DNA of 39,712 nt from Minisyncoccota bacterium (GCA_041389065.1 JAWKSM010000004.1:1-39712); one strand, 5' to 3'; counted from the stretch's first letter, positions 3,243 to 29,794 are shown. Translations and numbers: made by a program. Notes: generated by a model not told the origin, from the sequence alone.

Positions 3243-3482
3243 ATGATTTCTAGTGGATTGACGCACAAAATTCCAAATGATTTTAAAGAAGTTTTGTCTT
3301 CTTCGACAAAGTCACTTTTGACTTGGGAAGATATTACGCCTCTTGCAAGAAATGAGTGGATTTGTTGGATTACTTCTGCAAAAAAAATTGAAACAAGAAA
3401 AAAGAGAATCAGAATAGCTCTTGAAAATTTAAAGAAAGGGAAGCGTCGACCATGTTGCTGGTCTGGCTGCACTCACAGGTAA
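3243..3482 (+). CDS. YdeI/OmpD-associated family protein (short form)
   Basis: TPLARNEWICWI...AKK.ETR..RI......L..GKRRPCCWSGCTHR matches the conserved YdeI C-terminal pattern. Confidence 0.7.
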   Translation: MISSGLTHKIPNDFKEVLSSSTKSLLTWEDITPLARNEWICWITSAKKIETRKKRIRIALENLKKGKRRPCCWSGCTHR

Positions 3483-3484
3483 AA

Positions 3485-4342
3485 TTATTTTTTAGCTTGA
3501 TGAACAACAACTTGTGGAAATGGTATTTCAATACCATTTTTATCAAAAGAAATTTTTAATCTTTTTCTTAATTCTCCAGCCACTTCCCATTGTTTTGTAG
3601 GAATTGTTTCTCCTGTTATTTTTATAACAACAGAAGAATCAGCAAAATCATTTACTCTTAGAAATTTAGGTGCTTTTGTAATCAGTTTTCCGAAATACTC
3701 ATCATTTGAAATGTTTTCACCAACATTATTTACTACTTCTATAACTTTTTCTAGATCAGATTCATATCCAACACCAATATCTATATTTATTCCGGAAAAT
3801 CCTTTTGTTTGATTTGAAACTCTTTTAATTTCTCCGTGCGGGATGTGGTGAACTGCACCATCTAGGTCACGAAGTGAAGTCATCCGTAAACTTATATCTT
3901 CAACTGTTCCACATGTTTGATCGAAACATACAGTATCTCCGACTCTGTATTGGTTTTCTAAAATTATAAAAAGTCCTGAAATTATATCTCTGATTAAGTA
4001 TTGTCCACCAAAACCAAGTGCTAATCCGACAATCCCAGCCGCAGCAAGAAAGGGTCCAATATCAAACCCAATCTCTTTTAAGATAATTAGCATAGTAATT
4101 ATCAAAATAATAATATTGATAGTTCCAGATAATATTCTTATTATTGTATTTTCTCTTTTTTCTTCTGCCTCTTTTGAAGAAAATCCGCCAGAGCGAATCA
4201 TTTTTCTAATAATATTACCGAGAAATGCACGACTAATGTACTTTAGTATAAAAGCTAAAATTAAAATTAGTATTATCTTTACACCATGATCTAATAACCA
4301 ATTTAATAAAACTTCACTCCATTTATTATCTAAATTCAACAT
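3485..4342 (-). CDS. mscS: Small-conductance mechanosensitive channel (MscS family)
   Basis: Three TM helices followed by the MscS beta-domain pattern (ENQYRVGD.V...G.VEDISLR.T.LRD.DG..HHIP). Confidence 0.9.
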   Translation of the reverse strand: MLNLDNKWSEVLLNWLLDHGVKIILILILAFILKYISRAFLGNIIRKMIRSGGFSSKEAEEKRENTIIRILSGTINIIILIITMLIILKEIGFDIGPFLAAAGIVGLALGFGGQYLIRDIISGLFIILENQYRVGDTVCFDQTCGTVEDISLRMTSLRDLDGAVHHIPHGEIKRVSNQTKGFSGINIDIGVGYESDLEKVIEVVNNVGENISNDEYFGKLITKAPKFLRVNDFADSSVVIKITGETIPTKQWEVAGELRKRLKISFDKNGIEIPFPQVVVHQAKK

Positions 4343-4435
4343 ATTTTTATATTAACATAATTTATTATGAAAATAAGTACTTATTTCTACTAGCTATATG
4401 TTGCTGATAATAAGTTTTTTATATAAAATAAATTT

Positions 4436-4876
4436 ATGAATAAAAATATATTTTGGGGTACGGCGGCTTTTGGTGGAATACTTTTAATAGCTTTGGTTTT
4501 ACCAAAAACTAAAAATATTGATGACATTGAGAATACAAGTAGTTCCGAAGAAGCCATTATTGTATTATCTCAAGATTTTTCTAGTTTCCCTATTTATCCA
4601 AATGCAAATATAAAAAACATAAACGATATAGATGGAGAAAAGGCTCGAGATGCTTCTGTTAGTTTGAGCACTTTTGATAGTAAAAATAATATTCATGAAT
4701 GGTATCGTGAAGCTTTAAGTGTCGATGGATGGTCAATAAAGAGTGACAAAAATGTAGCTGGTTATCAGATTATTCAGGGTGAGAAACAAAATCTCTATAC
4801 TTCACTACAAGTTGCTGGTGGGGCAGAAGATGGTGAGTTAATTATTAGCCAGCAATTAAAAATTCGAAAACAATAA
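4436..4876 (+). CDS. Hypothetical membrane-anchored or secreted protein
   Basis: 146-aa ORF with an N-terminal hydrophobic anchor. I recognise no family. Confidence 0.5.
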   Translation: MNKNIFWGTAAFGGILLIALVLPKTKNIDDIENTSSSEEAIIVLSQDFSSFPIYPNANIKNINDIDGEKARDASVSLSTFDSKNNIHEWYREALSVDGWSIKSDKNVAGYQIIQGEKQNLYTSLQVAGGAEDGELIISQQLKIRKQ

Positions 4877-4927
4877 GTTGATATACTACGTATATTTATT
4901 AAGCTTTTGGTGTATAATTTAGGGTAT

Positions 4928-5380
4928 ATGAAAAAATTACTTGGTATTTCTTCGTTTTTAGCAATATTTGCTGGTGTTTTGCTGATACTTGCTGGTATTT
5001 GGGGAATTTCTTTTACTTATAACACTATTGCAAGGGAGAATATCACAACACCATCAGATGCATCAATACCTGACACTCCTGTTAGAGGTCCACTAACTTT
5101 ACAATCTCAAGCAGATATAATACGACACCATGTGCTTGAAACAACAGATGGAAAAACGTACTCTGAAATGCCATCAAAAGTAGAAAAAATACAACCCGAT
5201 GGAACTTTCGCAATGGTTCCAAATGATGCTCGCACTATATGGATCACCGCAACCACCCTCATTACTGCGTTACATCTTGGTATTATTACATATGTATTTT
5301 CAGGATTGGTTATATTTATAGGATTTATATCTGTTTGGACTGGTATAACTTTCTATGCTTTAAAAAAGAGTTTTGTTTGA
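4928..5380 (+). CDS. Hypothetical two-TM membrane protein
   Basis: The ORF track gives 4907-5380. An internal ATG at 4928 (MKKLLG...) gives a canonical signal-anchor start. TM helices sit at both ends. Confidence 0.55.
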   Translation: MKKLLGISSFLAIFAGVLLILAGIWGISFTYNTIARENITTPSDASIPDTPVRGPLTLQSQADIIRHHVLETTDGKTYSEMPSKVEKIQPDGTFAMVPNDARTIWITATTLITALHLGIITYVFSGLVIFIGFISVWTGITFYALKKSFV

Positions 5381-5583
5381 CTGCAAATACGGTGCTAAAG
5401 CTCGCTCAAAGAGCACTTCAGATTTTCAAAAGTTCTGAACCTGCTGAAAAAAGAGCTTTCTTGAACTATCTACTTCAGAACCCGACTGTAGACGGAAAAA
5501 AGCTATATTTTACAATAGCTTCTCCGTTTAATTTAGTACTAGAACTGGCTGACAGTCCTAACTGGCTCCCCGTCTCGAGTTAG
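5380..5583 (+). pseudogene. Orphan C-terminal fragment of a large serine recombinase (scar)
   Basis: Frame-1 translation ...EKRAFLNYLLQNPTVDGKKLYFTIASPFNLVLELADSPNWLP resembles the extreme C-terminal tail of recombinase-family proteins (compare ILEKRELLGNL.GKIKLKD in the intact copy at 13920-15224). It has no N-terminal catalytic domain and starts right at the stop codon of the upstream gene. Confidence 0.45.
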
Positions 5584-5726
5584 AACTAAGAAGCTCATTG
5601 CAGGGTAAGGTCATTTTAGCACTAAAATCGGAATTTTTCGACGCGTCTCGAGCACATCAAAAAGTTACAAAAGTGACACGAATCAGCCCTTAAAAATTAC
5701 ATTGCTCTGTAACCTTTTTCTAAGAC

Positions 5727-6104
5727 TTAAATTAGAGCTTCCTGCTCAAGTTCGTGCCACTCACCGGGGTCAATATCTAACATATGTTTATACCCAGTCA
5801 CAAGTTTCTTGGCTAGTTCATTCCTTCTCATCAAGTCATGACTTTCTATGTGTGGCGGAGGAATCTTATTTAAGCTGCGTAGATCTTGAACAAACATCAT
5901 AGTCTTTCTTTTTAAATCTAGATACTCGAAATAAAGTCTTTCACATTCCAGATCAAACATCCATATCTCACCACAGGAATGACAGTAAAATTCTTTCTTT
6001 GTGTGCCCTATTTTCGCAGCAGGTTGACCTTCTGGCTTAACGGTGGCGAAATTCAGATCTGACACTTTTACACTAATTGAATTACATTTTTTACAAGTAA
6101 CCAT
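5727..6104 (-). CDS. Zn-ribbon protein (CxxC...CxxC), last gene of the Shedu-like cassette
   Basis: 125 aa with CKKC near the N-terminus and CHSC about 35 residues later. Starts 9 nt after the upstream gene's stop. Confidence 0.6.
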   Translation of the reverse strand: MVTCKKCNSISVKVSDLNFATVKPEGQPAAKIGHTKKEFYCHSCGEIWMFDLECERLYFEYLDLKRKTMMFVQDLRSLNKIPPPHIESHDLMRRNELAKKLVTGYKHMLDIDPGEWHELEQEALI

Positions 6105-6113
6105 ATAAAAATA

Positions 6114-7268
6114 TTAATTAATGTGATCCTCTAAGATCTTTATGTAATTTAGAAGTCGACCAAGAAGTTCGTCGTAGGTAACAAAGATAATATTTTTTGT
6201 TGAGAGACAAAGTAGACGAAAATCATCACTTTGTTTCTGTTCTACAAATTTTTTAGTATCTCCTGCCAAAATGATTCCGCGGGGACGAAGTACCTTCATA
6301 TTAATCTTGTAATTATCTAAAATGTAGCCACGAACAGCTGCTGCATTATTGGAAATATTTTCAATATAATTTTCTGTCTGGATTACGGCTTTCGCGATTT
6401 CAGAATCCCAAAAATAATTATTACGGCCTGAGTCGTGTTTAAGTATAGGTGTATCAGGACGTTTTATTTCTAAAATATCCAAGTAGTTGTCGTGAGTTAT
6501 AAGACAAAAGTCTGGAAATTTTGTCTTACCGATCACGATATTCATTTTTTCAATCGCCTGAATATAACCCTGCTGGATTATAAGAATATTTTTCTTTATA
6601 TAGGTTTGCCACCAAGATTCCGTGTGTCCTGCATTTATTTGTTTTTCCAAATCTACGGCAAGTTCTTTAAGGCTTTTTATTTGAGTGGTTGCTTTCATTA
6701 AGTTAACCGCACTCAGAGATTCCGAAGAGATAAATTCTGGCAGAAAAGTATTTATAGCCTCTTTGTCGGAAATTGAAAGTCTTGTAACAATATTTGGGTC
6801 AAGAATCTTAGACAGTGTTCCTGGAACATACGCATTTATTTCTCTTTCTTCAAAATGTGTAGGATGCATGCGTGAGAACATGCTCGAAACGATATCGGTC
6901 TTTATATCACGACCCCTATCGAAAAGCTCACTATTCATTTTTGAAAATGTTTTCTGGGAAATTTTTACGCGGTGTATTTTTCTTTCTACGGTTATTGAAT
7001 CAATTTCCGCGGTTATGATTAAGTGAAAATTTTCAAATTTCCTTTTCAGTATTTCAAGTATGTGTTTTCCAAACCCGATCTTTCCGTCATTTCCAAGATT
7101 CTTAGGCTTTTTACCTTCGAAATAAATCCTCGTACCCTTCAAAAGATTTCCGTAACTTTTATTACTTACAACAACATATCCTTTTCTGAGTTTGGTAACC
7201 CTTTTGTTATTAGATTTCTTTTTCTTTGTACCGCTGATAGGTTTTTTGGTCCCAGTTATCTTTTTCAT
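6114..7268 (-). CDS. sduA: Shedu-like DUF4263 PD-(D/E)xK nuclease with a Lys-rich N-terminal extension
   Basis: C-terminal half reads HTESWWQTYIKKN...FPDFCLITHDNYLDILEIKRP...AVIQTENYI...PRGIILAG...IIFVTYDELL. This matches the DUF4263/Shedu layout (E..WQ, D...EIK core, Q..nY, terminal TYDeLL). Confidence 0.7.
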   Translation of the reverse strand: MKKITGTKKPISGTKKKKSNNKRVTKLRKGYVVVSNKSYGNLLKGTRIYFEGKKPKNLGNDGKIGFGKHILEILKRKFENFHLIITAEIDSITVERKIHRVKISQKTFSKMNSELFDRGRDIKTDIVSSMFSRMHPTHFEEREINAYVPGTLSKILDPNIVTRLSISDKEAINTFLPEFISSESLSAVNLMKATTQIKSLKELAVDLEKQINAGHTESWWQTYIKKNILIIQQGYIQAIEKMNIVIGKTKFPDFCLITHDNYLDILEIKRPDTPILKHDSGRNNYFWDSEIAKAVIQTENYIENISNNAAAVRGYILDNYKINMKVLRPRGIILAGDTKKFVEQKQSDDFRLLCLSTKNIIFVTYDELLGRLLNYIKILEDHIN

Positions 7269-7271
7269 GGC

Positions 7272-7517
7272 TTAGTGTTTCTTGTCTCTGGGAGGGTTTG
7301 GATCCTTTCCGGGTGCAACCGTATCACTGTCTCTAATTGGACCACCGTTAGGTTTATGAATCCTCACTTCACCGCCTCCTGATTTGCCTGATAACTCCTT
7401 TGCTAGTTTTTCTGCTTCTGCTTGAGTTCCAACAATAGCTGCGGCTCGATCCGCACCAGCTTTTAATACTTTCCAACCATCCGAATTTTTCGGATTAGTC
7501 ACATGATAGTTTGCCAT
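7272..7517 (-). CDS. DUF2188 domain protein
   Basis: MANYHV...DGWKV...A.RA......TQAEAEKLAKEL......EVRIHKPNG.IRDSDT...DPNPP is the classic DUF2188 pattern. Confidence 0.8.
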   Translation of the reverse strand: MANYHVTNPKNSDGWKVLKAGADRAAAIVGTQAEAEKLAKELSGKSGGGEVRIHKPNGGPIRDSDTVAPGKDPNPPRDKKH

Positions 7518-7534
7518 ATTATTTATGAACTAAT

Positions 7535-8194
7535 TTATAAATTATGCACATACTCGATGTCGTCTTCGGGACGTCCAGTCGGAATTGTGCGTATAAACTT
7601 TCCAAAGATTCTGGAAGTTTCATCGAGAACAATAGGTTGATATCCTTTTGCTTCGGGGTGGAGTATAGCAAGACCTTGTGTTGTTTGTAATCTTTTAAGA
7701 ACAGCCATATCACCAATTATCGCAACAACCCTGTCTCCATTTCCAACAAATTCAGTCTTCTCAACCAGGACATAATCACCGTTATAGATACCGGCATCTA
7801 TCATACTGTTTCCGATAGCCTTAACGGCAACAACCTCTTTGTTTGATCCAACTAAACTCGGAGCCACAGTCAAATACTCTCCAAATTGTTCTTGGGCATA
7901 AACAGACATTGCATCACAGCCAACAGAAGCAATGACTGGTATTTTTAGAAACTGGTTCTTAGAAAAGATGTCGTGATTAACGACTGTAATTCCTCGGTGT
8001 TTAAAGCTATCTCGGCGTATCAAACCTTTTTTCTCTAAGGCGTCCAATCTTTGGGTTACGCTCCGAAGAGATTTTAGCTTGAAGTGTTCCTTGATTTCTG
8101 TAATCAGCGGGGAGAAACCGTTTTTTCTAATAGAGGCTTCTAGGAATTCCAGCGTTTCTTTTTGTTTAGTTGTGAGTATGGTCTGAAGGGCCAC
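7535..8194 (-). CDS. lexA: LexA-type repressor (winged-helix plus S24 autopeptidase), GTG start
   Basis: N-terminal LT.KQ.E.L.F......NGFSP...EI......S..SV...L..LEKKGLIRR. S24 catalytic Ser in GNSM and Lys in LKRL. Putative cleavage region IASVGCDA. Confidence 0.85.
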   Translation of the reverse strand: MALQTILTTKQKETLEFLEASIRKNGFSPLITEIKEHFKLKSLRSVTQRLDALEKKGLIRRDSFKHRGITVVNHDIFSKNQFLKIPVIASVGCDAMSVYAQEQFGEYLTVAPSLVGSNKEVVAVKAIGNSMIDAGIYNGDYVLVEKTEFVGNGDRVVAIIGDMAVLKRLQTTQGLAILHPEAKGYQPIVLDETSRIFGKFIRTIPTGRPEDDIEYVHNL

Positions 8195-8307
8195 AACGTA
8201 ATTATATCACTTACATTTTACTGGTCAAATATTTAAACAGCCACTTATCCACACAATATACACAACTTTGCTTGATTCTTTGCAAACACTTCTGATATAG
8301 TCACTTT

Positions 8308-8454
8308 ATGCCTTACGAACTTCAATTAAAACCTTTTACAGGGACAGACGGTATTAAGTGCAAAATCATTGAGATCACTGATATTGCTTTTCATACAACT
8401 AAAAAGACACCCACTCCTTCCGTTGGTAAAAAGATTCAAAAAGGCTTTCAATAA
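8308..8454 (+). CDS. Possible 48-aa early-gene ORF divergent from the repressor
   Basis: ATG at 8308, stop at 8452-8454; first ATG ORF downstream of the divergent control region. No recognisable HTH. Confidence 0.25.
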   Translation: MPYELQLKPFTGTDGIKCKIIEITDIAFHTTKKTPTPSVGKKIQKGFQ

Positions 8455-8485
8455 ATTAAACCAACCAGACAGAATCTATTCCCCA

Positions 8486-8722
8486 ATGAACAGAGACATG
8501 TTTTCCTCAGATAGAAAGACGTTTGCTCTTGAGCTTCTCAAAAGAGATCCTGATTTTTTGAAAATGATTCAAAAAGAGCAATCTCAGGGTTATAGAGTCT
8601 TAATTCAATTGCCGAAAGATGGAATCCCTATGGTTGCCGGAGACGATACAATCGAATTTCTTAAGAGTAAAAACGGAAAAAGATTATTAAGAGGATTTGA
8701 AAAAGAAAATATAGAGGAATAG
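8486..8722 (+). CDS. Hypothetical protein
   Basis: The track ORF 8369-8722 starts with TTG. The first ATG is at 8486 (MNRDMFSS...). No family recognised. Confidence 0.4.
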   Translation: MNRDMFSSDRKTFALELLKRDPDFLKMIQKEQSQGYRVLIQLPKDGIPMVAGDDTIEFLKSKNGKRLLRGFEKENIEE

Positions 8723-8888
8723 AATATAAAAATTGATATTGCGTAGTAAAAAGTAGAATAGTGTATCGTTTCAAAGCCATGCCTATTCCGCGCAAGAAAT
8801 AGTTTGAAGATTTCGAGCTTCATCTGTTTCGTGTGTGGGATAGGCTTTTTCTATATCCATACATTTTATTAAAGATTAATAAAATCGT

Positions 8889-9266
8889 ATGACGAAACTT
8901 TCATGGACAACAGGAGTTCGAGAAGTCAAAGACTTACTCCCTTGGAAAGAAAACCCAAGAAAAATCTCACGGGTGGCAATGGAAAAATTAAAAGAAAAAA
9001 TCATTCAAAGTGGTTTTCACAGTGTGATTGTCATTGATACAGATAACACCATTATCTCAGGCAATCAAAGAAAAACTGCTTTGATACAACTCGGTATCAA
9101 GCAGGTAAACGTATTGATTCCAGATCGTAAACTTTCAGATGAAGAACGCCGCAAGATTGCTATTGAAAGCAACATTAATGACGGCGAATGGGATTTTGAA
9201 AAATTAAAGTCATTTGATCTAGGTCTCCCTTCAATTTGCAGGATTCAACGAAAAAGAGTTGGTTAA
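8889..9266 (+). CDS. ParB-like nuclease (ParBc) domain protein, probably the N-terminal half of a ParB-MTase fusion
   Basis: Core is IVIDTDNTIISGNQRKTAL, typical of the ParB/Srx fold. The C-terminal 15 aa look out of frame. Confidence 0.75.
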   Translation: MTKLSWTTGVREVKDLLPWKENPRKISRVAMEKLKEKIIQSGFHSVIVIDTDNTIISGNQRKTALIQLGIKQVNVLIPDRKLSDEERRKIAIESNINDGEWDFEKLKSFDLGLPSICRIQRKRVG

Positions 9267-10164
9267 GTTTTGGGACGAAGAAAAAGATACCAAAGATGAC
9301 AAATTCGATGTTGAGAAAGAACTAAAGAAAATAAAAACACCACAGACTAAACCCGGTGACCTCATTATCATGGGTGGTCACAAGTTGTTGTGTGCTAGTT
9401 CAACTGATGTTAATGCTGTTAGAAAACTGTTCGGAAATGATAAAGCTACGGCTATCTACAATGATCCGCCTTTCAATATTGGACTTTCATATGACAAGGG
9501 CGTAGGTAAGAGGTCCAACTACGGAGGCACCTTTGACGATAATCAATCTCCCGAACAATACAAGGAGTTTATTCGTAAAGTTCTAAAATCTTCACTTGCC
9601 ATATCCACCAAAGACGTTCATGTGGCGTTTTGGTGTGACGAAGCGTGGGTGTGGGTTTTTCAAACTTTGTATATGGAACTTGGTGTTAAAAACAGAAGGC
9701 TCAATGTTTGGATTAAAAACAACGCATCGCCTATACCGACCGTAGCGTTTAATAAATGTCTTGAATATTGCGTATATGGCACGAAAGGATCTCCATATCT
9801 TTCAGACATTCTTAAAAATCTCAATGAAGTACAAAACAAAAATTATGGAACTGGTAATCAGCTTCTAGAAGATATCTCAAATATCTGGGCGACCAAACGA
9901 CTACCTGCAAATCAAATGGAACATCCAACAAGCAAGAATCCTGAACTTCACCATAAGTTTATTATGCGTTGCACTAAGCCAGGAGACATCATCTTTGACG
10001 CCTTCTCGGGTTCGGCCAGCACCATGATCTGTGCGGAACAATTAGGTAGAAGAGTCTATTCTCTAGAGACAGAAAATGTGTTTTGTGATTTGGCGATTCG
10101 CAGGTACGAGAAGTTGACTGGCTGTAAGGCACAAATAATCAAGAACTTTTATGAAAAAGAATAA
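9259..10164 (+). CDS. DNA methyltransferase (N6-A/N4-C, beta class), probably the C-terminal half of a ParB-MTase fusion
   Basis: Motif IV is NDPPFN. The SAM motif I near the C-terminus is IIFDAFSGSASTMICAEQLGR. The frame is open back to 9223 and reads VSLQFAGFNEKELVKFWDEE. Confidence 0.85.
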   Translation: MVKFWDEEKDTKDDKFDVEKELKKIKTPQTKPGDLIIMGGHKLLCASSTDVNAVRKLFGNDKATAIYNDPPFNIGLSYDKGVGKRSNYGGTFDDNQSPEQYKEFIRKVLKSSLAISTKDVHVAFWCDEAWVWVFQTLYMELGVKNRRLNVWIKNNASPIPTVAFNKCLEYCVYGTKGSPYLSDILKNLNEVQNKNYGTGNQLLEDISNIWATKRLPANQMEHPTSKNPELHHKFIMRCTKPGDIIFDAFSGSASTMICAEQLGRRVYSLETENVFCDLAIRRYEKLTGCKAQIIKNFYEKE

Positions 10165-10564
10165 ATTTCAAGATCAGTTCTTGGAGGAACTACGAAAAGT
10201 TCCAATTGTCCAGGTTGCTTGCGAAAAGACTGGGTTATCAAGAAACAGTGTATATCGTTGGAAGCGAGAAGACAAAGAGTTTGGAAAGAAAATGGATGAA
10301 GCGTATGCAGAGGGTGTTGCATTGGTAAGTGATATGAGTGAAAGCCAGTTACTTACCCTTATTAAGGAGAAAAACTATTCGGCGATAAGCTTCTGGCTTC
10401 GTCATCGAAACGACAACTACAAAAACAAACTTGAAATTACCACCAAAGAAGATCCCGAAGAGCTAACACCGTCACAAGCAAAAGTTGTGAAGGAAGCCTT
10501 AAAACTTGCAAAGATTACAAAATCAAAATCTATTAGAAATATTAATCGAAAAAAACATGACTAA
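10151..10564 (+). CDS. terS: Terminase small subunit-like HTH protein
   Basis: HTH segment VACEKTGLSRNSVYRWKREDKEF..KMDEA. Overlaps the MTase stop by 14 nt and the TerL start by 8 nt. Confidence 0.6.
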   Translation: MKKNKFQDQFLEELRKVPIVQVACEKTGLSRNSVYRWKREDKEFGKKMDEAYAEGVALVSDMSESQLLTLIKEKNYSAISFWLRHRNDNYKNKLEITTKEDPEELTPSQAKVVKEALKLAKITKSKSIRNINRKKHD

Positions 10565-12050
10565 AATAATTTCAAAAACACTTATAGACACGATGATAAA
10601 AGATCGTTCAGTGCGAACATCAATTACAAAAGACAGTTTTCTGTACTTCTTTCATTTCTACTACGCTCACTACGTAAAGTATGAAACAGCAGACTTTCAA
10701 AAAGAGATCATTCATAATCTCGAAAAAAGTACTACCGAAAATCTGTATGTAGTTGCGTTCCGTGGATCGGGTAAATCAACTATGGTGACAACTGCATACC
10801 CAATCTGGGCAATTCTTGGAAAACAACAAAAGAAATTTTGTATTATCTTCTGTCAAACCAGAGCACAGGCAAAACAGCACATGATGAATATCCGTACTGA
10901 ACTCGAAGGTAATGATGTGCTGAAGAGAGACCTCGGGCCTTTCCAAGAAGAAAGCGATGAGTGGGGCTCATTCTCTCTCGTGTTTAAAAAACACGGTGCC
11001 AGAATTACAGTTGCTTCAAGTGATCAAAGTATTCGAGGAATACGCCACAACGAACACCGTCCAGATCTCGTAATCTGTGATGACGTTGAAGATGTGCAGT
11101 CAACCAAAACTCGAGAGGGTCGAGACAAGACATATCATTGGCTTCGAGGCGAAGTTATTCCTGCAGGAGATAGAAAAACAAGACTGATCATCGTAGGTAA
11201 TCTTCTTCATGAAGACTCACTACTTATGAGGATCAAGGATGAAATAACTAATGGCAAGGCAAAAGGAATTTTCAAAGAGTATCCGTTGATTGATAAAAAT
11301 GACGTTTGCCTTTGGCCTGGAAAATACAAAGACGAGAAAGATTTAGAAGATGAAAAAATGAAAGTTGCTAGTGAGATTGCTTGGCAACGAGAATATTTGC
11401 TTCGCATTATTCCAAGTGACGACCAGGTTATTTATCCAGAATGGATCCAATATTACGACGAGCTTCCAGGAGCAAAACATAAAGCTTATCGAGGTACGTA
11501 TGCTGGAGTCGATCTCGCTATATCAGAAAAAGAATCTGCTGATTTCACTGGTGTTGTTTCCGCACACGTGTACGGTAGAAGGGAAAAAATGAGAATATAT
11601 GTTCTCCCAAATCCAATTAAAAAGAAACTCAATTTTCCTGCACAGGTTGATTTGATGAAAGATTTCAAGAAGACTCAAATGCCAAAATCAACAGACATAT
11701 TATTTGTAGAAAGTGTTGCGTACCAAGAGGCTTTGCCACAAATGCTAGAACTTCATGGGATCCAAGCAACAGCAATTAAACCAAAAGGGGACAAGAGGAC
11801 GAGACTACAGTTAACTTCAACAGTCATAAAATCGGGTGTAATTAAATTTCCAAGACACGGATGCGAAGACCTCATCGAACAACTTGTAGGGTTTGGTGTT
11901 GAAAAGCACGACGATCTTGCGGATGCTTTTTCGCTCTTGATTAATGCCACGTTGGATAAACACTCAAATGAATCAACATGGTTGATGTTCTGGCCTGGTG
12001 GAGGTGATGACAGTACTCTATATTTCTCCGACTATGTTGACGTTGGGTAA
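10557..12050 (+). CDS. terL: Terminase large subunit (ATPase plus nuclease)
   Basis: Walker A is AFRGSGKST and Walker B-like is DLVICDDVED. C-terminal RNase H-like nuclease with GVDLA...D.ADAF. The ATG at 10557 is preferred over the track start at 10506. Confidence 0.85.
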   Translation: MTKIISKTLIDTMIKDRSVRTSITKDSFLYFFHFYYAHYVKYETADFQKEIIHNLEKSTTENLYVVAFRGSGKSTMVTTAYPIWAILGKQQKKFCIIFCQTRAQAKQHMMNIRTELEGNDVLKRDLGPFQEESDEWGSFSLVFKKHGARITVASSDQSIRGIRHNEHRPDLVICDDVEDVQSTKTREGRDKTYHWLRGEVIPAGDRKTRLIIVGNLLHEDSLLMRIKDEITNGKAKGIFKEYPLIDKNDVCLWPGKYKDEKDLEDEKMKVASEIAWQREYLLRIIPSDDQVIYPEWIQYYDELPGAKHKAYRGTYAGVDLAISEKESADFTGVVSAHVYGRREKMRIYVLPNPIKKKLNFPAQVDLMKDFKKTQMPKSTDILFVESVAYQEALPQMLELHGIQATAIKPKGDKRTRLQLTSTVIKSGVIKFPRHGCEDLIEQLVGFGVEKHDDLADAFSLLINATLDKHSNESTWLMFWPGGGDDSTLYFSDYVDVG

Positions 12051-12055
12051 ATAAC

Positions 12056-12835
12056 CTACTCTAGATTTTCTAATTGAGTAGAATCTTGATTAGCATTAGT
12101 TTCTGTATTCTGTTTTGTCGTAACCTTTCTTTTTCTCTGACTAACCATAATCGGAAGTTTTGGTTTTACTGACTCAATCTTGGTTGTAATAATCTTGTAA
12201 ACTGAATCTAGAATATCCTTCTCGCTAAAATACAGTCCTGTTTTGTGTTTTAGGACTTTCTTGAGAAATCTAATAACTTCAACGGCGTAAAGATTGTTAG
12301 ACAATTTAGTTGGTTCAAGAGCTTCAAACCGAGCCCAGAAATCATTGAGTTCGTCTTTCAAAACACTTTTCTTGGTCAAGAAAAACATAAATTCTGACGC
12401 ATGTTTTAACTCTGCGGTATTTGAAAGATCAAACTCGAAAACTTTTCTGGTCGTAATTGGTTTACCAAAAATTACTCGATAGAGTTCGACTTGTTTACCG
12501 TTTGTAAGAATTATCCAATCAATACCTTCGTTGGCCGCGTAGCTAATACTCTGTCGTAGATGTCGCTCAGACAGATCAAGCTGAATGGCTTTTACTTCGA
12601 CTACGAATTGTTTCTTTCTTTTGACTTGGATAATGTAATCAGCATATTCTCCACGAATTCGATATTCTGTTTTTATTTCTTCTAGCTCTGTATATCCCAA
12701 GACATTGGTTAGCAGGCTATTTATCATGAGTCTTGTTGCTGATTCATCGAGATCTTTGTATTGCTTCTTCAAATATTGTTTGGAGTAGTTTTGGAGTTTT
12801 TTATAAAATTCCTGTTTTTGTAATTTTGTTGCCAT
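12056..12835 (-). CDS. Stand-alone HsdR_N-like PD-(D/E)xK nuclease-fold protein
   Basis: YADYII...KKQFVVEVKA......RHLRQ...YA...G..WIILTNG is the pattern of type I restriction HsdR N-terminal domain proteins. Confidence 0.6.
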   Translation of the reverse strand: MATKLQKQEFYKKLQNYSKQYLKKQYKDLDESATRLMINSLLTNVLGYTELEEIKTEYRIRGEYADYIIQVKRKKQFVVEVKAIQLDLSERHLRQSISYAANEGIDWIILTNGKQVELYRVIFGKPITTRKVFEFDLSNTAELKHASEFMFFLTKKSVLKDELNDFWARFEALEPTKLSNNLYAVEVIRFLKKVLKHKTGLYFSEKDILDSVYKIITTKIESVKPKLPIMVSQRKRKVTTKQNTETNANQDSTQLENLE

Positions 12836-12852
12836 ATAAGTTATCTTTTAAA

Positions 12853-13608
12853 TTATTGATTACCGACCTTTTTTATTAATGTCATAAGCTCGTAAGAATC
12901 TTTTATCGCCTGTTGGTCTTTTTTGGTAAGCGTAAAATCAGAATTTTTTTGATCTCCAGAAAATCTCACTCGTACATCCAAATCTCCACTACTTGCAATA
13001 GCTTGGATTATTCCGTTATCTTTGTTACCTGTAAAACTAACGACCTCCCAAACACTTCCACCAGAATTTTGAGTTGCATTATCTGGATCATACGTAGGAA
13101 CTTCTTGCGATTTCAAAACAAGTTCTCCAACTTTGACTTCCACTCTCGTGTGGAATATCCAATTCTCCCCATAATACTGACTTTCCAAATACCCATACCC
13201 TCTGTTGTTTACCGGTACTTTTATAAGTCGTCTATTGTATGAATTTTCTGCTAGTTGATTTTTGTGGGTGTACCAACCAATGTTATTAAATTCATCATAT
13301 TTGTATGTAAAGTTTTTCTTGAGCTCCTCTAGTCTTGCCTTATTTGCTTCTAAAATCGCTGGATCAACCGGTTCAGGTGTTGAAGCAACTACATTCTGAT
13401 TGGTAGATACAGGAGATGGGGTAGAAGTGTTTTTATTATCAGCACTTGAAGCGCTTACGATTAAAATAATCACTAAAAATCCGAGTCCTGTAAGAATCGG
13501 ATGTCGACTAAACCAACTTCTTAGATCTGTCTTGCAGTGAACACACTTCTTTGCTTTTGAAGGTATGTCTGACTGACAAGAAGGACACTTTTTCGTTTCT
13601 TCTTTCAT
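12853..13608 (-). CDS. Zn-ribbon / single-TM membrane protein with an extracytoplasmic domain
   Basis: N-terminal CPSC...CVHC zinc ribbon, one TM helix and a 170-aa C-terminal domain of unknown family. Confidence 0.6.
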   Translation of the reverse strand: MKEETKKCPSCQSDIPSKAKKCVHCKTDLRSWFSRHPILTGLGFLVIILIVSASSADNKNTSTPSPVSTNQNVVASTPEPVDPAILEANKARLEELKKNFTYKYDEFNNIGWYTHKNQLAENSYNRRLIKVPVNNRGYGYLESQYYGENWIFHTRVEVKVGELVLKSQEVPTYDPDNATQNSGGSVWEVVSFTGNKDNGIIQAIASSGDLDVRVRFSGDQKNSDFTLTKKDQQAIKDSYELMTLIKKVGNQ

Positions 13609-13919
13609 ATGTATTTATAAATAAATTAATAAAAAGTTAGTGGCAAACAAAAAGCCCACCACCAGATAGAGCCGAAGCTCATATCTCAAGTTTCCCTGAA
13701 ATAGCACAAACAGTGACCTCTGATGATGGGGTCTTTATACTGTTTGTGTCTAACTATATTCGGGCCATATCGTCGCCCAAAGGCGCCGGGTTAGGTCACT
13801 ATGTTGTATGTATATAATATCGTAAAAAAGCTCTCTTGCTAAGAGCCCAGGCGAGTATGCAATAAAACCGCTAGTCTGCATAGCTATGCAGGGTTTATGG
13901 GTCTGGCATTAATATATCT

Positions 13920-15224
13920 ATGGAAGAAAGAGCGAATCAAGGAGTTGTCACTCCTCCTCAAAAAATTAAATACGTCCTATACGCACGCAAAAGCACGGAC
14001 AGTGATGAGATTCAAGCCTTGTCTATAGATTCTCAGGTCAAAGAAATGCTTCAAATTGCTGAACGGGAAGAACTTGAAATTGTTGATATTAGAAGAGAAG
14101 CTCACTCTGCAAAAGATTCAGGTCAACGACCAGTCTTTAAAGAAATTATCGAAGACATACGAAGAGGTCGTTTTAATGGAATTATTGTTTGGCATCCTGA
14201 TAGATTAAGTAGAAACGCAGGGGACCTGGGAACCCTAGTTGATCTCATGGATCAGAAACTTTTGATTCAGATTAAAACCTACGGACAGAATTTTACTAAT
14301 AGTCCAAGTGAGAAATTTCTTTTGATGATCTTGTGTAGTCAGGCGAAGTTAGAGAATGATAATAAAAGTATAAACGTAAAGAGGGGACTACGAGCCAAGG
14401 TTGAAATGGGGTTGTGGCCATCTGTGGCACCAACAGGGTATCTCAATGAAAAACGAATGGACAGAAAAGGTCATGTACTAGTAGATACTGAAAGGGCACC
14501 GACTATAAAGAAAATCTTTGAAAAGGTGGCGTATGAAAAGTGGTCAGGCAGAAAAGTATACAACTGGCTCAAGTTTGATCTGAACTACAAAACCGCAGCC
14601 GGAGGTAAAAACCTGTCTCTAAGTAATATTTATATCATCCTCCAAAACACTTTTTACTATGGAATGTTTGAGTACCCGCAGAAGTCTGGAAATTGGTATC
14701 AGGGCAAACACGATCCACTCATTACCAAAGAATTGTTTGATCAAGTTCAGGATCAAGTAAAAAGCCAGTTTGTGAGGGTGGAAAATAAAGAATTTGCTTT
14801 CACTAAACTCATGTTCTGCGGACTGTGTGATTCTGGAATAACGGCAGATGAGAAATTCAAGAGACAGAAAAATGGCAACGTTCACCGGTATGTTTACTAT
14901 AAATGCTCAAATTCAAAAGACAGGACTTGCAAAAACGGCTATCTGGAAGAAAAAGAACTAATTCGACAATTTGGAGATCTGATGGATCGAATAGATCTAA
15001 ATGAAATTGGGATAAGAGAAAAACTAAGATCTGAAGTAGAGAAATTCAAGAAATTCCAAAAACTTCTTTCTGGAAAATCAAAGAAAGTTGAGATAGAGGA
15101 TATAGATATACGGAATTATGCGAAGTTTGTTCTTACTGAGGCGAGTATTTTGGAGAAACGAGAGTTGCTAGGAAATCTTAAAGGAAAAATCAAGTTGAAA
15201 GACAAGAGAATTAGCCTTTCTTGA
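13920..15224 (+). CDS. Large serine recombinase (resolvase catalytic domain plus recombinase domain plus Zn ribbon)
   Basis: YARKSTDSDEIQALSIDSQ catalytic Ser context, RLSRN, and a CGLC...YYKC zinc-ribbon segment. Confidence 0.9.
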   Translation: MEERANQGVVTPPQKIKYVLYARKSTDSDEIQALSIDSQVKEMLQIAEREELEIVDIRREAHSAKDSGQRPVFKEIIEDIRRGRFNGIIVWHPDRLSRNAGDLGTLVDLMDQKLLIQIKTYGQNFTNSPSEKFLLMILCSQAKLENDNKSINVKRGLRAKVEMGLWPSVAPTGYLNEKRMDRKGHVLVDTERAPTIKKIFEKVAYEKWSGRKVYNWLKFDLNYKTAAGGKNLSLSNIYIILQNTFYYGMFEYPQKSGNWYQGKHDPLITKELFDQVQDQVKSQFVRVENKEFAFTKLMFCGLCDSGITADEKFKRQKNGNVHRYVYYKCSNSKDRTCKNGYLEEKELIRQFGDLMDRIDLNEIGIREKLRSEVEKFKKFQKLLSGKSKKVEIEDIDIRNYAKFVLTEASILEKRELLGNLKGKIKLKDKRISLS

Positions 15225-15252
15225 AATATAAATATTTAATAGGTCTTATTTT

Positions 15253-18200
15253 TTAATCAGTAATCGGCCTTATTAATACTGTACGCATAGTATCATTTCC
15301 TTTTTTATAGGAATTAACTTCTTCTAGTTCAAATCTGACACCAATATCTTTACCAATACTTTCAAGTTGTTTTAAGATTATTTGATAACTCGTCTTATCT
15401 CTCGCATTTGCAAGTATTGGTATAAATCTATTTTTATCTATATATTCACTCTTGTACCTCTCAATAAAAGCCTTGATTAGCTTACCGCCAGCTAACTTTG
15501 ATTCTGTGTTGGCGGCAAGATCTGCTACATAAATTACTTTCTCATTTTCCTCTACAGAACCTTCGTATGCAAGAAGATATCCCTGGGTCTTTTTCTTCTC
15601 ATCCTCATATTTAAGTGCCATATTGGGAAGATTGAAATGAGAGTTTAATATATCTTTTGCAATTAGACCATTTTCTATATTGTGTAAATATTCTTTTAGG
15701 GAAGAATTGTCGTCGTATGCTTTTCCTTCGATATATGCGGCACTAAGAGTATCTGCGTATGTCAGGTCAGAAATACCCTGTATACTTGATTCTATTTTTT
15801 TAATACTTGGCTTATTTTTAGCACTTAGTTTTTTCTGTAAAATTAATTTTTGTTTCGTTAAATCAATTACTTTTGCAGTTTTTCCTATGTTATCGCTGTA
15901 TCCAACAGGAGCAGTTGGTACAAAAGTATTATCAATATTTTGGCCAATACTTGCATCAGTGTAACCGGTTCCAATTACGACACGATTAGTATCAAGATTT
16001 TCCTTTTCTCCATAGTGTTTTGCATACTCACTAAAGAAATCGTCATATAAAACTTCAAGATCAGTAATGTCTCTAAAGTTAGGACTTACCTCGATATTGT
16101 CGCACGTCATTATATCTTTCTCATTTACTAACACATCATCAGAAAATATCCCGTTTAAAGAAGTTTTTTCATTTCCGTTCAATTTTTTTAGCAAATCTGC
16201 GACGTTTACCTTTATATCCCGATCTTTTGTAACTACAGATTGGGCTACCGTTTTCCACTCTCCATCTTTTGATTTTCTCTGAACCACCAGCTGACCACAA
16301 ACAGGATTATACATATACACGTTATTTTTCCCTGAACCGAATGGCATACAACAAGCTGTGTCGTTTCCAGCTACTACCACTTCTGGGTCGCTCTTTAGTC
16401 CAATCTTCATTCTGTATTCCTTTATAGGTAGAGCCAGTCCGTATTCTCCGTTATATAAGATACTCTGAAAGTCTTGTTGTAAATTTTCCGGGATAGCAAT
16501 TTGACCTTTTATTATTTCCATCAAGTTCAATCTTTCTTTTTTAGATAAATCATTTAATTTTTTAAACAAAACTCCTGGATTTTTTGCAATACCAGTGATT
16601 TTCTCACCTCTTGAGCCAAGCGCCTTTTTCATTTGATCTACAAAAGACAGATGAGTAATCTCTCCTTGAGGTATCTTATACTCAATTTCAAGAGGCTGCC
16701 ATGCTTGTATTTGGTCGAGTGATCCCTCTATCAAAGCATCTCTTAAATCTTCTGAACGAAGGTCCATGTAGGGAATTTCTGTATAGTTTGAGGGCTTCTT
16801 TAATTCATGGGTGCGGCTCGCATGCTCATCACCGACACCTAGAAATCCAGATGGGTTTTGCCAGAACTCAATTACTGACTGAGTATTAATATTCGGATGA
16901 AAAGCTAAATATTCTACATAGTCTTTTAATTTTTCTTTTCCTTCGCCCGAAAGATCTTTGAGTTGCTCTAAGATTTCTGATTTATTTAAAAGTTCTATTA
17001 AATCAGCAAAGTTTTTCAAAGATTTCCAATTAATAAAAATGTCTCCCGGTTTTTTGATTTGATCTACCAAGTCTTTTATTTTTTTGATTTCGTATTCCGT
17101 TGCTTTCTTTAGTTTTTCTAAAACATCTATATTTTCAAAAACATCAGCAATATTATTTAGTTTTTGATATGAATTAATTTCTAAAGTTTCGTAAGCTTCG
17201 CCTCCATCATCCTCTTCTTCCATATACTCCTCTGCTACGCCGTAATTTCCGGCGTCTCGTTGAACCTGGAGTAGGATGTTGGCATAGAACTGCTCGGGTT
17301 TTAACCCCGACTTCTGTGCCATATTGATTACCTTTTTAAAAGCAAAAAGTTTGTCATGGTGGTTTTTACCACCCACGAACTTAAACATTTTTTTGTATCC
17401 AAAATATAGGGCACCAGTTTCAAACGCCTCCTTAATTTCATGATCTTCTTGAGTCCAAACCGAATCTTCCATATTTTTGATATTTTCAAAAATATATTCG
17501 TAGTCATTTTCTGTTTGTGGGTCGTACTCAACTTCATGTTCATCTATTTTGTTTAAATCAAGCCCTCTTTCTTCAACAAGTCTTTTTTTTATTAAGATAT
17601 TTTCTCCTAAAGAAAGTGTTTCTATGTATTTCCAAGATAGACCAAGGATATTTTCTGTAAAAAATTTTTTTGTTTCTTCTGTTTCAACCATACTTCCCAG
17701 AGAAAGTTCATTTAATTTTATAAGTTTTATTGTACCCAGTTTTACTTCAGCATCTGAAATCTCTAGTCTTTCTTTGAGATTTATAGCAATGTATATTTTA
17801 CCAACAGACATCCAGTTGCTAATGGATTTAAGCACTATTTCATTAGCGGTTTCATTGTCTATTAGGAATTGTTTTTGTATTTCTTTAAAATTTTCTGTTA
17901 TATCGTCTGCCACACCTCCGTTCATGTTCAAAATCCAGAGCATTTCTTTTTTTGCCAGTTTTTGAACATTTGGACTTCTTATAAACTCTTCGGAAACATT
18001 AAAATTATTTTTTAATGAAATAACCTCAGCAATGTGACTTTGATCTAGACGCTTTAGAATCCACTTTTCAACTATTTCTTGTACATCACTTTCTGCCAAG
18101 TTGAACTCTCTCGCAATATTGCCTGCTGCAAGTGAATCCTCTCCCTTTATTTTATTATCCATCGCCCTTTTCGCCACTGTTTGAATATCGACATCGGTAA

Positions 18201-20130: not shown

Positions 20131-20198
20131 ATATTTAAAATTATATCATTTCCATACAAAAAAAGCTCCTTTAAAAAAGAGCTGTTTCTGACGCATCT

Positions 20199-20219
20199 CG
20201 TGCGGGATAACCCTGCACG
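20199..20219 (-). terminator. Hairpin immediately 3' of tRNA-Asn
   Basis: cgtgcggg-ataa-ccc(t)gcacg, 3 nt from the tRNA CCA end. A weaker hairpin with a T-tract lies further downstream at about 20163-20185. Confidence 0.35.
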
Positions 20220-20222
20220 ACT

Positions 20223-20297
20223 TGGCTCCCCGAGTAGGATTCGAACCTACGGCCAATCGATTAACAGTCGATTGCTCTACCGCTGAGCTATCGGGGA
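20223..20297 (-). tRNA. tRNA-Asn (anticodon GTT), CCA encoded
   Basis: Reverse complement is TCCCCGATAGCTCAGCGGTAGAGCAATCGACTGTTAATCGATTGGCCGTAGGTTCGAATCCTACTCGGGGAGCCA. It has a 7-bp acceptor stem, D and T arms (GGTTCGAATCC) and anticodon loop CTGTTAA. Confidence 0.95.
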
Positions 20298-29788: not shown

Positions 29789-29794
29789 TTAAAG

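Follow-up and report, generated by a model that had tools for sequence, protein, structure and literature searches.

What is an island that encodes an intact terminase but no portal, capsid or tail genes? The question is raised by a locus in the window, that is, the whole stretch of 39,712 nucleotides from a Minisyncoccota bacterium that was analyzed here (GCA_041389065.1, JAWKSM010000004.1:1-39712). A first-pass annotation had described a recombinase-bounded island at 5380-15224 and offered three readings: a satellite that keeps its own terminase and could redirect packaging into the capsids of a helper phage, a recent deletion remnant of a prophage, or a restriction-modification (R-M)-like module.

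Both the extent and the borders of the island required correction, because the right arm up to a tRNA gene had been overlooked. In the window sequence the mobile element occupies 5573-20222 (14.65 kb) between exactly matching 10-bp direct repeats, TGGCTCCCCG, which derive from the 3′ end of a tRNA-Asn gene, the second repeat being that end itself. The serine recombinase fragment on the left comes from a different, larger recombinase and lies outside the element, with a reading frame that continues into the tRNA-derived repeat; the element is therefore not bounded by recombinases. The features at its ends are:

5381-5572, plus strand: C-terminal remnant of a serine recombinase, outside the element (translation resembles recombinase C-termini)
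5563-5572: attL core TGGCTCCCCG, which repeats the final 10 nt of tRNA-Asn and is identical to 20223-20232
5573-5726: non-coding left end of the element, with family motifs TCTCGAGTTAGAAC and cattgcagggtaaggt and an inner copy GACGCGTCTCGAGC
20190-20222: right end of the element, with the inverted repeat TCTCGTGC..GCACGA adjoining the tRNA
20223-20297, minus strand: tRNA-Asn(GTT) (ARAGORN; Rfam tRNA, 75 bits), the last 10 nt of which (20223-20232) form the attR core

In an independent run, an RNA/DNA contig crosses the attL junction (5523-5774), and in other contigs 5431-5572 leads straight into the 3′ end of tRNA-Asn. The left-end motifs recur at the left ends of four related elements (L047, L032, L039 and L086), and the left end of a further relative, L125, is 86% identical to the window over 5563-5717. 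Alignment of 27 right ends, together with that of L086, gave CTCGTGC-TA-GCACGAG as the family form of the right-end palindrome. In 27 loci a minus-strand tRNA is found at the right end, and in several of these a matching repeat on the left gives element sizes of 12-19 kb. The core overlap at insertion is short (5-10 bp), and the element ends carry inverted-repeat arms.

The comparison with empty sites that the first-pass annotation had proposed supports mobility. A conspecific genome, L108, has flanks 96-97% identical to those of the window but lacks the island, and in this empty allele the homologous recombinase remnant directly abuts tRNA-Asn. Empty sites were also recovered for L086, where contigs from runs X27 and X28 join position 3429 to 18858 and skip 15,428 bp; flank depth was about equal to element depth plus junction depth. 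Empty and occupied sites thus occur together in these samples. In runs X29 and X32 the L086 element was found without a single mismatch in different flanks. Circular or concatemeric junctions were not seen in the runs searched, none of which was identifiable as virus-particle-enriched, and element depth never exceeded flank depth.

All genes of the first-pass annotation are present at the positions it gave. Within the revised borders, the gene content of the window copy is as follows:

5727-6104, minus strand: Zn-ribbon protein, 125 aa, left cargo (ORF; L125 has other genes at this position)
6114-7268, minus strand: Shedu defence nuclease SduA, left cargo (PF14082, 2.8e-28; PADLOC SduA, 7.7e-27)
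7272-7517, minus strand: DUF2188 protein, PADLOC candidate PDC-S16 (PF09954, 9e-19; PDC-S16, 2.6e-16)
7535-8194, minus strand: LexA/CI-like repressor with an S24 self-cleaving peptidase domain (LexA_DNA_bind, 5.3e-17; Peptidase_S24, 1.8e-19)
8308-8722, plus strand: first gene of the rightward operon, function not assigned (tblastn; about 137 aa in relatives; broken by a +1 insertion at 8442)
8889-10164, plus strand: ParB_N-DNA methyltransferase fusion (ParB_N and N6_N4_Mtase; phrog_498; broken by a +1 insertion at 9229)
10151-10564, plus strand: TerS-like helix-turn-helix (HTH) protein, 137 aa (phrog_4044, 7.5e-10; phrog_4102, 3.7e-5; phrog_309, 2.3e-4)
10557-12050, plus strand: TerL, intact, 497 aa (phrog_38, 1.5e-80)
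12056-12835, minus strand: HSDR_N_2 (PD-(D/E)xK-like) protein, middle slot (PF13588, 8.1e-9; phrog_17239, 1.7e-45)
12853-13608, minus strand: Zn-ribbon membrane protein, middle slot (weak DZR match; also present in L125)
13920-15224, plus strand: large serine recombinase, the probable integrase of the element (PF00239, 1.6e-22; PF07508, 1.8e-13; PF13408, 2.5e-8)
15253-20130, minus strand: 1625-aa protein, right cargo (ORF; missing from the empty-site genome L108), placed inside the element by the revised borders

The layout is of the lysogeny type, as first described, with the repressor divergent from the rightward operon and divergent promoter-like sites between them; the best such site of the island (8228-8201) lies directly upstream of the repressor. 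The serine of the GNSM motif and the lysine of the repressor are conserved. The overlapping stop and start codons of the operon are likewise real, and the phage-derived module finishes with the TerL stop codon at 12050. The ParB and methyltransferase (MTase) parts (8889-9266 and 9259-10164) are present as two pieces in the window, and every relative has them as one ORF of about 424 aa; the L001 protein aligns to the window in two frames, and the extra base at 9229 is missing from L125 and from contigs of run X3. Homology to the first operon gene is similarly split (tblastn frame 1 over 8308-8445, frame 2 over 8426-8710), and in L125 this gene is intact with an A-run one A shorter. Given these two +1 frameshifts, the window copy may be impaired. 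Coverage by RNA contigs (including 6455-6905 in SduA and 7879-8179 in the repressor) is confined to the leftward genes and the right-arm ORF, and comes from six low-depth contigs that may include DNA.

The cargo is non-structural, and the two middle-slot genes converge on the operon as previously annotated. SduA carries the DUF4263 nuclease domain that characterizes Shedu; L125 shares 94.5% identity with the window in its backbone but has a Thoeris-like TIR gene of the ThsB type in place of SduA. The DUF2188 gene often adjoins the repressor and occupies an identical position in many loci. Neither the Shedu gene nor the DUF2188 gene was part of the first-pass annotation. Other loci have an SNase, a tRNA_anti-like OB protein or nothing in the slot of the HSDR_N_2 gene. 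Domain and defence profile searches found no family match for the ORF at 5727-6104, and the 1625-aa ORF matched no Pfam or PHROG family; runs X22/X23 contain the region 13775-20282 in near-identical form, and their contigs over 14936-20282 are free of mismatches.

TerL is intact, as was originally noted, and probably starts at 10557 (MTKII), giving 497 aa. The phrog_38 match covers residues 29-487, the score for Terminase_6C was marginally below its cut-off (21.6 against 22.6 bits), and the motifs FRGSGKST, LVICDDVED, GVDLA and KHDDLADAF, representing Walker A, Walker B and the acidic residues of the RNaseH-like nuclease, are invariant in 76 sequences. A phmmer search with TerL gave no PDB match, and its AlphaFold model was too poor for use (pLDDT 43). 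The TerS-like gene lies directly upstream of TerL and overlaps it in all loci; its model is helical with an HTH, and a Foldseek search with this model (pLDDT only 58.6) returned nothing significant. The recombinase is also intact, contains Resolvase, Recombinase and Zn_ribbon_recom domains, and is the sole conserved recombinase of the element; its catalytic YARKS motif and its DRLSRN motif are conserved in 58 sequences, and its clades follow the target tRNA. Estimates of dN/dS were about 0.03 for TerL, about 0.05 for the TerS-like gene, 0.03 for ParB-MTase and 0.04 for the recombinase, with synonymous sites saturated in most pairs. The TerL and TerS-like genes are the most conserved of the element and under strong purifying selection, with no sign of relaxed selection on terL.

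The same gene set without structural genes, which the first-pass annotation had suggested looking for, is widespread. More than 4000 clusters of TerL homologues were found, the best 120 being 80-90% identical and located on Patescibacteria contigs of up to 281 kb. Matches came from 233 species genomes, all of the 80 loci fetched had one core order, and the order recurs across the more than 85 related loci examined, so the arrangement is not due to chance. The core consists of a repressor (LexA/CI-like with an S24 peptidase or, in some members, ImmR/ImmA) divergent from a small gene, ParB-MTase, the TerS-like gene, TerL and the large serine recombinase; domain and PHROG profile searches recognized no replication gene in it. 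Cargo occupies three fast-changing slots: one to the left of the repressor, one between TerL and the recombinase, and a third that separates the recombinase from the tRNA. Across the family this cargo includes CBASS, Thoeris, Shedu, Pycsar, R-M systems, diversity-generating retroelements and copper resistance. An identical TerL protein was found between differing cargo sets. The island family has apparently not been described before.

Pfam and PHROG searches found no portal, capsid or tail genes between the att sites (5573-20222), and none of the Pfam tables of 8 loci contained virion genes. By contrast, loci whose TerL is 34-42% identical to that of the element (the L092/L104/L105 type) are genuine phages or prophages: they carry ParB-MTase and TerL of the same PHROG family, and continue with a portal-MuF gene (phrog_2662, 1e-110), a protease, a major capsid protein, an adaptor and tail genes, none of which had a match in 85 related element loci. 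When 246 ORFs of the phage loci were compared with the element loci, ParB-MTase and TerL alone matched, and the TerS-like protein showed no detectable homology to the protein in the TerS position of these phages. The shared genes indicate that the module of the element derives from a Patescibacteria tailed-phage lineage, and the content of the element itself is not that of a tailed-phage (Caudoviricetes) prophage.

An integrative element with its own integrase and without virion-building genes has the general traits of a satellite. We regard it as somewhat probable that the window island is a copy of a terminase-only phage satellite and cargo carrier of Patescibacteria. The absence of portal and capsid genes from homologous elements, purifying selection on terL and the empty sites favour the original satellite proposal, of which packaging into helper capsids is the part that we infer: since the packaging enzyme is kept and capsid and tail genes are absent, the island most likely travels in the capsids of other phages. 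Since the element TerL shares only some 40% identity with those of the phages, docking on the phage portals is not assured. A candidate helper exists on contig DBDS01000006.1, where an element (L040) occurs together with a prophage of the related type (L105), a co-residence that is one among 5 portal matches and statistically not meaningful.

The terminase pair could instead be mainly an anti-phage weapon, jamming or competing for the procapsids of an invader or cutting its DNA, with transfer secondary or absent. The richness in defence cargo fits such a packaging-interference island, as does the C-terminal acidic/aromatic extension of the element TerLs that the phage TerLs lack, and the higher conservation of the element TerLs (pairwise identity 58-89%, against 46-59% for phage TerLs in the sampled set) would fit a generalist function. 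However, the mobility of the element is clear from a recombinase of its own, att sites and an identical copy in different flanks, and the co-conservation of a DNA-recognition subunit and a methyltransferase with TerL fits packaging of the element's own DNA. We consider interference as the main function unlikely, and it overlaps with the satellite model, the two being compatible.

Quite unlikely in our view is a helper-free route, in which the terminase would process replicated or excised DNA, load vesicles or serve a domesticated, gene-transfer-agent (GTA)-like capsid cluster located elsewhere in the chromosome. No structural genes were found within 10 kb, and conservation across the phylum is extreme, both of which would suit this reading. 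Against it, a profile of the related-phage portal searched against 185,579 species genomes matched 5 loci only, each belonging to the related phages, and in two of these, which reach past the portal, protease, capsid, adaptor and tail genes are present; with so few portal loci there is no widespread domesticated capsid cluster. TerL enzymes are not known in any role other than that of the capsid-portal motor, which speaks against the route as well.

A decayed prophage, which recently lost its portal, capsid and tail genes and is eroding further, is very improbable. The two +1 frameshifts lend it some substance for the window copy, but for the family it is rejected: more than 85 loci, spread over many lineages of Patescibacteria, have the layout without structural genes, no homologous element carries portal or capsid genes downstream of terL, the four core genes have dN/dS of 0.03-0.05, and the att sites leave no space for a structural module. 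Joint action of the ParB nuclease, MTase and terminase-like ATPase-nuclease as an R-M-like module has their domain content in its favour but is very unlikely, since in genuine phages these ParB-MTase and TerL genes, between which an unrelated gene takes the TerS position, lead directly into portal and capsid genes, ParB-MTase falls in phage methyltransferase families (phrog_498), no PADLOC model matches TerS or TerL, and, unlike in type II R-M, the MTase is fused to ParB_N with no conserved endonuclease partner.

Among known satellites, the terminase-only reading finds its closest parallels in PICIs, SaPIs and capsid-forming PICIs (cf-PICIs), which are likewise integrative, about 12-19 kb in size, repressor-controlled and equipped with packaging genes while missing most virion genes. 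SaPIs carry TerS, cf-PICIs carry TerS and TerL, and defence or accessory cargo resides in hotspots (PMC10085698; PMC9122126; 10.1101/2022.09.08.507074). PICIs and SaPIs are defined in SatelliteFinder by a tyrosine integrase, an AlpA-type regulator and a primase-replicase module, whereas this element has a large serine recombinase, and profile searches of its core found neither AlpA above threshold nor a primase or helicase. Unlike cf-PICIs it has both terminase subunits without capsid, portal or connector genes, and it differs from both groups in its host phylum, Patescibacteria, and in a helper dependence that is putative here. P4 uses the terminase of its helper and remodels the capsid via Sid/Psu, whereas this element brings its own terminase and has no recognizable capsid-remodelling gene. 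P4-like satellites resemble it in a conserved backbone with variable anti-phage slots, the anti-phage systems turning over faster than the backbone (PMC9122126). Tycheposons, PICMIs and VEIMEs, marine integrative elements that occur in virus particles, are also small and cargo-carrying, and are found partly in streamlined genomes. Tycheposons usually have tyrosine recombinases. They integrate at tRNA genes, PICMIs and VEIMEs reportedly package their genomes as concatemers, and terminases are present in about 8% of VEIMEs (10.1101/2020.12.28.424599; PMC12822802). The core found here, of repressor, ParB-MTase, TerS, TerL and serine recombinase, is undescribed for any of these three.

In the cycle that we propose for the satellite, DNA damage or infection by a helper would inactivate the repressor, the operon would then be switched on, and the recombinase would excise the element. 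Its TerS and TerL would recognize element DNA, cleave it and drive it into helper-phage procapsids, spreading the cargo and probably lowering helper yield, and methylation by ParB-MTase would protect the DNA from restriction in the following host. More tentatively, and with slightly less than even confidence, we suggest that the family represents ancient, phylum-wide terminase-only satellites that keep just a packaging motor, its TerL bearing the element-specific C-terminal extension, and a tRNA-targeting serine integrase, and that steal the complete capsids and tails of helpers. On this view they may also move neighbouring chromosomal DNA by in situ (lateral) packaging, as their packaging operon is invariably directed towards the tRNA, and these satellites would be the main shuttle by which defence systems, diversity-generating retroelements and metal resistance move among the ultra-small bacteria of the Patescibacteria.

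The terminase genes belong to a conserved, mobile, tRNA-integrating element that lacks virion genes and whose terminase pair is under strong selection. In the window, it lies in chromosomal DNA of about 35% GC between housekeeping genes on the left (BacA, sortase, MscS) and on the right (tRNA-Asn, hibernation factor, PPIase, fmt, def, HisRS). Domain or profile matches were obtained for the repressor, ParB-MTase, TerS-like protein, TerL, cargo and recombinase, confirming the genes listed in the first-pass annotation, which had overlooked two genes left of the repressor:

6114-7268, Shedu nuclease SduA, left of the repressor (overlooked)
7272-7517, DUF2188 gene, left of the repressor (overlooked)
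7535-8194, minus strand, LexA-like repressor with LexA_DNA_bind and Peptidase_S24 domains
8889-9266, plus strand, ParB_N
9259-10164, plus strand, N6_N4 MTase
10151-10564, plus strand, TerS-like HTH protein (phrog_4044, 7.5e-10)
from 10557 (most likely the real start), plus strand, TerL (phrog_38, 1.5e-80)
strand opposite to the TerL operon, HSDR_N_2 protein and Zn-ribbon membrane protein
13920-15224, plus strand, complete large serine recombinase
15253-20130, 1625-aa ORF inside the element

The 1625-aa ORF matched no family, an Rfam search of the island found no RNA family except tRNA, and a repeat search of the island returned AT-rich chance repeats only. Elsewhere in the window, 27896-31213 encodes a 630-aa coupling ATPase of the TrwB/TraG type and, after it, a lamin-tail/PKD-domain protein of 472 aa, a region that may represent a DNA-transfer or uptake apparatus; the ATPase is kept in a conspecific contig (L108), which ends within that gene.

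The island had initially been bounded by recombinase genes at 5380-15224. The last 10 nt of tRNA-Asn (20223-20232, TGGCTCCCCG) recur at 5563-5572, with GGCTCCCCG as the attachment core of the window element, and an empty-site allele, which the first reading had proposed looking for in related genomes, was found in L108 (43.8 kb), whose flanks match those of the window at 97.4% and 96.4% identity. Gene order in L108 follows that of the window up to the ORF at 4436-4876, after which a recombinase C-terminal remnant directly abuts tRNA-Asn, followed by the hibernation factor gene, and window 5573-20222 is entirely missing. Contigs from sequencing runs X3 and X4 have the same empty-site pattern, with an island depth of zero. 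The 10-nt repeat and the empty sites thus define an element of 14,650 bp at 5573-20222 that includes the 1625-aa ORF, and the earlier borders were not upheld; the stretch 5381-5572 is the remnant of a different recombinase outside the element and not a boundary gene.

A second variable spot lies next to the tRNA. The 157-aa membrane-protein gene beside the recombinase remnant (window 4905-5371), for which an exact-protein look-up gave no match, is inverted in L108 (10635-11121) and only 70% identical, within flanks that are 96-97% identical. Besides this inverted gene, L108 carries an extra 220-aa ORF and only the C-terminal remnant of a recombinase, overturning the full-length recombinase beside tRNA-Asn that had been read from X3/X4 Logan contigs. 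A group I intron occupies the tRNA-Asn anticodon loop in L108 (12145-12464; Rfam RF00028, 79.4 bits, E = 1.7e-20) at the site equivalent to window 20263/20264, where X3 contigs likewise break; the window tRNA-Asn is intron-free. Larger serine recombinases (480-600 aa, ~35% identical to that of the element) or their remnants were observed just left of several elements (window 5381-5572, L020, L031, L041, L044, L046, L064, L080), which suggests that these tRNA sites are also used, by tandem accretion, by a second family of recombinase-borne elements.

TerL homologs formed more than 4000 clusters, the best 120 of them 80-90% identical and located on chromosomal contigs of up to 281 kb. Scanning a single genome for each species gave matches in 233 genomes, from which 80 loci were fetched; the relatives were Patescibacteria MAGs throughout. 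Analysis by tblastn and ORF clustering resolved a single architecture, in which leftward cargo, often with a DUF2188 gene, precedes a minus-strand repressor (in some members replaced by an HTH/ImmA-metallopeptidase pair) and a plus-strand operon of a small unknown gene, a single-ORF ParB-MTase (~425 aa), a TerS-like gene (~135 aa) and TerL (~500 aa). Between TerL and the serine recombinase (~440 aa) there may be an insert (0-8 kb), and the recombinase is followed by more cargo and a minus-strand tRNA gene. None of the variants of the first operon gene matched Pfam or PHROG. The gene set without structural genes, which the first-pass annotation had proposed looking for in other genomes, recurs across the fetched loci: of 246 ORFs from related phage loci, only ParB-MTase and TerL matched within 10 kb of an element TerL, and the Pfam tables of eight loci contained no virion gene. 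One locus (L015, 7086-21491) holds two tandem elements, the second repressor and operon beginning right after the right cargo of the first, and in L051 the recombinase itself is inverted.

Cargo varies around this core, and contigs encoding an identical TerL protein can carry wholly different flanking cargo. The left slot holds CBASS (CD-NTase and Cap15) in 12 loci, and elsewhere Thoeris (ThsA-Macro and ThsB-TIR), a caspase-like set, Shedu, Pycsar, AAA_15 ATPase or Lactamase_B-like genes. The middle slot holds an SNase, a tRNA_anti-like OB protein or HSDR_N_2, and the middle or right slot holds type I, type III and type IIG/SNF2 R-M systems, reverse transcriptase with bAvd (diversity-generating retroelements, 10 loci), a copper ATPase/CsoR/DsbD set (~16 loci) and ABC transporters. 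The retroelement cassette, found in about 10 elements (L009, L012, L024, L027, L047, L049, L086 and L124 among them), consists of reverse transcriptase, bAvd and a 300-aa candidate target, and sits before or after the recombinase in either orientation. Locus L125 is 94.5% identical to window 7511-13804 and has a TIR/8xMP pair in place of the window's Shedu. Window 13775-20282 (recombinase, 1625-aa ORF and tRNA end) was near-identical in an aquatic metagenome from another study (runs X22/X23), with zero mismatches over 14936-20282 and the terminase-side half missing or only ~97% identical, a pattern that suggests module exchange between elements.

A minus-strand tRNA gene (Gln, Glu, Ser, Trp, Lys, His or Asn) ends 27 loci at the right, and several loci have a direct repeat of the tRNA 3′ end to the left of their left cargo, from which element sizes of 12-19 kb follow. 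A conserved palindrome (consensus CTCGTGC-TA-GCACGAG) marks the right ends at a distance of 2-4 nt from the tRNA, and left ends start with TCTCG(A/T)G(A/T)T(A/G)GAAC, which has a second inner copy. Recombinase clades match the target tRNA, which points to the recombinase as the probable integrase. At locus L086 in activated-sludge runs X27/X28, flank depth was 34/23 and element depth 20/10.5, and a contig of depth 9/15 joins 3429 to 18858, omitting 15,428 bp with a 5-bp overlap (TGTGA); the joining contig alongside the element depth indicates that empty and occupied sites coexist in each sample. The same element is mismatch-free in runs X29 and X32, but its flanks differ. Circular junctions, which the first reading had proposed looking for in read data, were not seen: a search for a right-end palindrome followed by a short tRNA-like core and a left-end motif gave no match in viral contigs and three in metagenome contigs, at L114 2177-2217 (reverse-complemented; fetched 4233-4273, minus strand), L115 1833-1873 and L116 929-969. 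With no core genes nearby, these were rejected as proof of circles and are regarded as tandem remnants, solo att-like scars or miniature derivatives. No run in which the window element or L086 occurs carries a viral label.

To our knowledge, few phages have been described for this phylum. Contigs in IMG/VR with TerL 51-87% identical were also of the element type, and those with TerL 34-42% identical were real phages carrying ParB-MTase, a TerS-position gene, TerL, a portal-MuF fusion (phrog_2662, 1e-110), protease, major capsid protein, adaptor and tail genes. Prophages of this type occur in two Patescibacteria genomes. In JANBVK010000001.1 (L104) the full set of ParB-MTase, TerS-position gene, TerL, portal-MuF, protease, capsid, adaptors and tail was observed, and DBDS01000006.1 (L105) has this set minus ParB-MTase; the packaging and head modules of this tailed-phage lineage are apparently complete. 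In a single case, DBDS01000006.1, the prophage and an element (L040) are found together and form a candidate helper pair. Element TerLs bear a C-terminal extension of ~20-45 aa (motif DDxTxY[YF]xDYxDV) that is missing from the phage TerLs, and profile comparison of the element TerS-like protein with the phage positional TerS detected no relation. The predicted TerS-like model was weak (pLDDT 58.6) and had no significant Foldseek match; for TerL, AlphaFold had a shallow alignment to work from and its model (pLDDT 43) could not be used, and phmmer of TerL against the PDB gave no match.

Coding indels that set the core of the window copy apart from that of L125 number exactly two, an additional A at 8442 that splits the first operon gene and an additional C at 9229 that splits ParB-MTase; the TerS-like gene, TerL, recombinase and repressor are intact. 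General assembly error is unlikely, since the alignment of host flank with L108 is free of coding indels over its 10.5 kb. Six RNA contigs from run X2, part of the study whose DNA runs match the window, map only to 5523-8179 and the right-arm ORF, with none on ParB-MTase, TerS or TerL, regions that a DNA run of that study covers patchily; this pattern hints, though weakly, at repression of the rightward operon. Selection was estimated by Nei-Gojobori dN/dS from pairs with unsaturated dS only, giving 0.03 for TerL, 0.05 for TerS, 0.03 for ParB-MTase, 0.04 for the recombinase, 0.11 for the repressor and 0.47 for the first operon gene. Synonymous sites of TerL were saturated in 85% of pairs, yet amino acid identity was ~60-90%. 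Walker A, Walker B and nuclease acidic motifs were invariant in 76 TerLs, and the recombinase catalytic motif and repressor Ser/Lys dyad were conserved. The test proposed earlier for terL therefore returned strong purifying selection, and the low dN/dS and conserved motifs exclude relaxed selection.

From the absence of virion genes, the selection and the mobility, we infer a terminase-only phage satellite, as the first-pass annotation had considered; the element would package itself into the procapsids of a helper phage. Its slots are analogous to the cargo hotspots of P4 and PICIs. Both its integrase type and its gene set separate it from the satellite classes known so far (PMC10085698, PMC12822802). 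We found no description of this family in the literature, nor, for any satellite class, of a layout with both terminase subunits and no capsid, portal or connector. A rival reading, which overlaps with the satellite model, is that the terminase pair serves as a packaging-interference defense, and another is a helper-independent use of the terminase. Decay from a prophage, also put forward initially, is rejected for the family, as the structure-less layout is shared family-wide and relaxed selection is excluded. The suggestion that ParB, MTase and terminase act as an R-M-like module was likewise rejected.

These loci are currently labeled ‘phage terminase’ or ‘hypothetical’, and some are in IMG/VR as viral contigs; recognizing the family avoids counting them as prophages. 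The apparent targets of the recombinases are the 3′ ends of at least eight tRNA species, with cores of 5-10 bp, and the enzymes would constitute a natural serine-integrase panel with predictable sites. A terminase-only satellite would demonstrate that a phage can be parasitized through control of the packaging motor and nothing more. In Patescibacteria, whose genomes are tiny, few ways of exchanging genes are known. The element is conserved and abundant, with matches in 233 species genomes and thousands of metagenome terminase clusters, and because it also shuttles CBASS, Thoeris, Shedu, Pycsar, R-M systems, retroelements and copper resistance, it would be a major vehicle of the Patescibacteria accessory genome.
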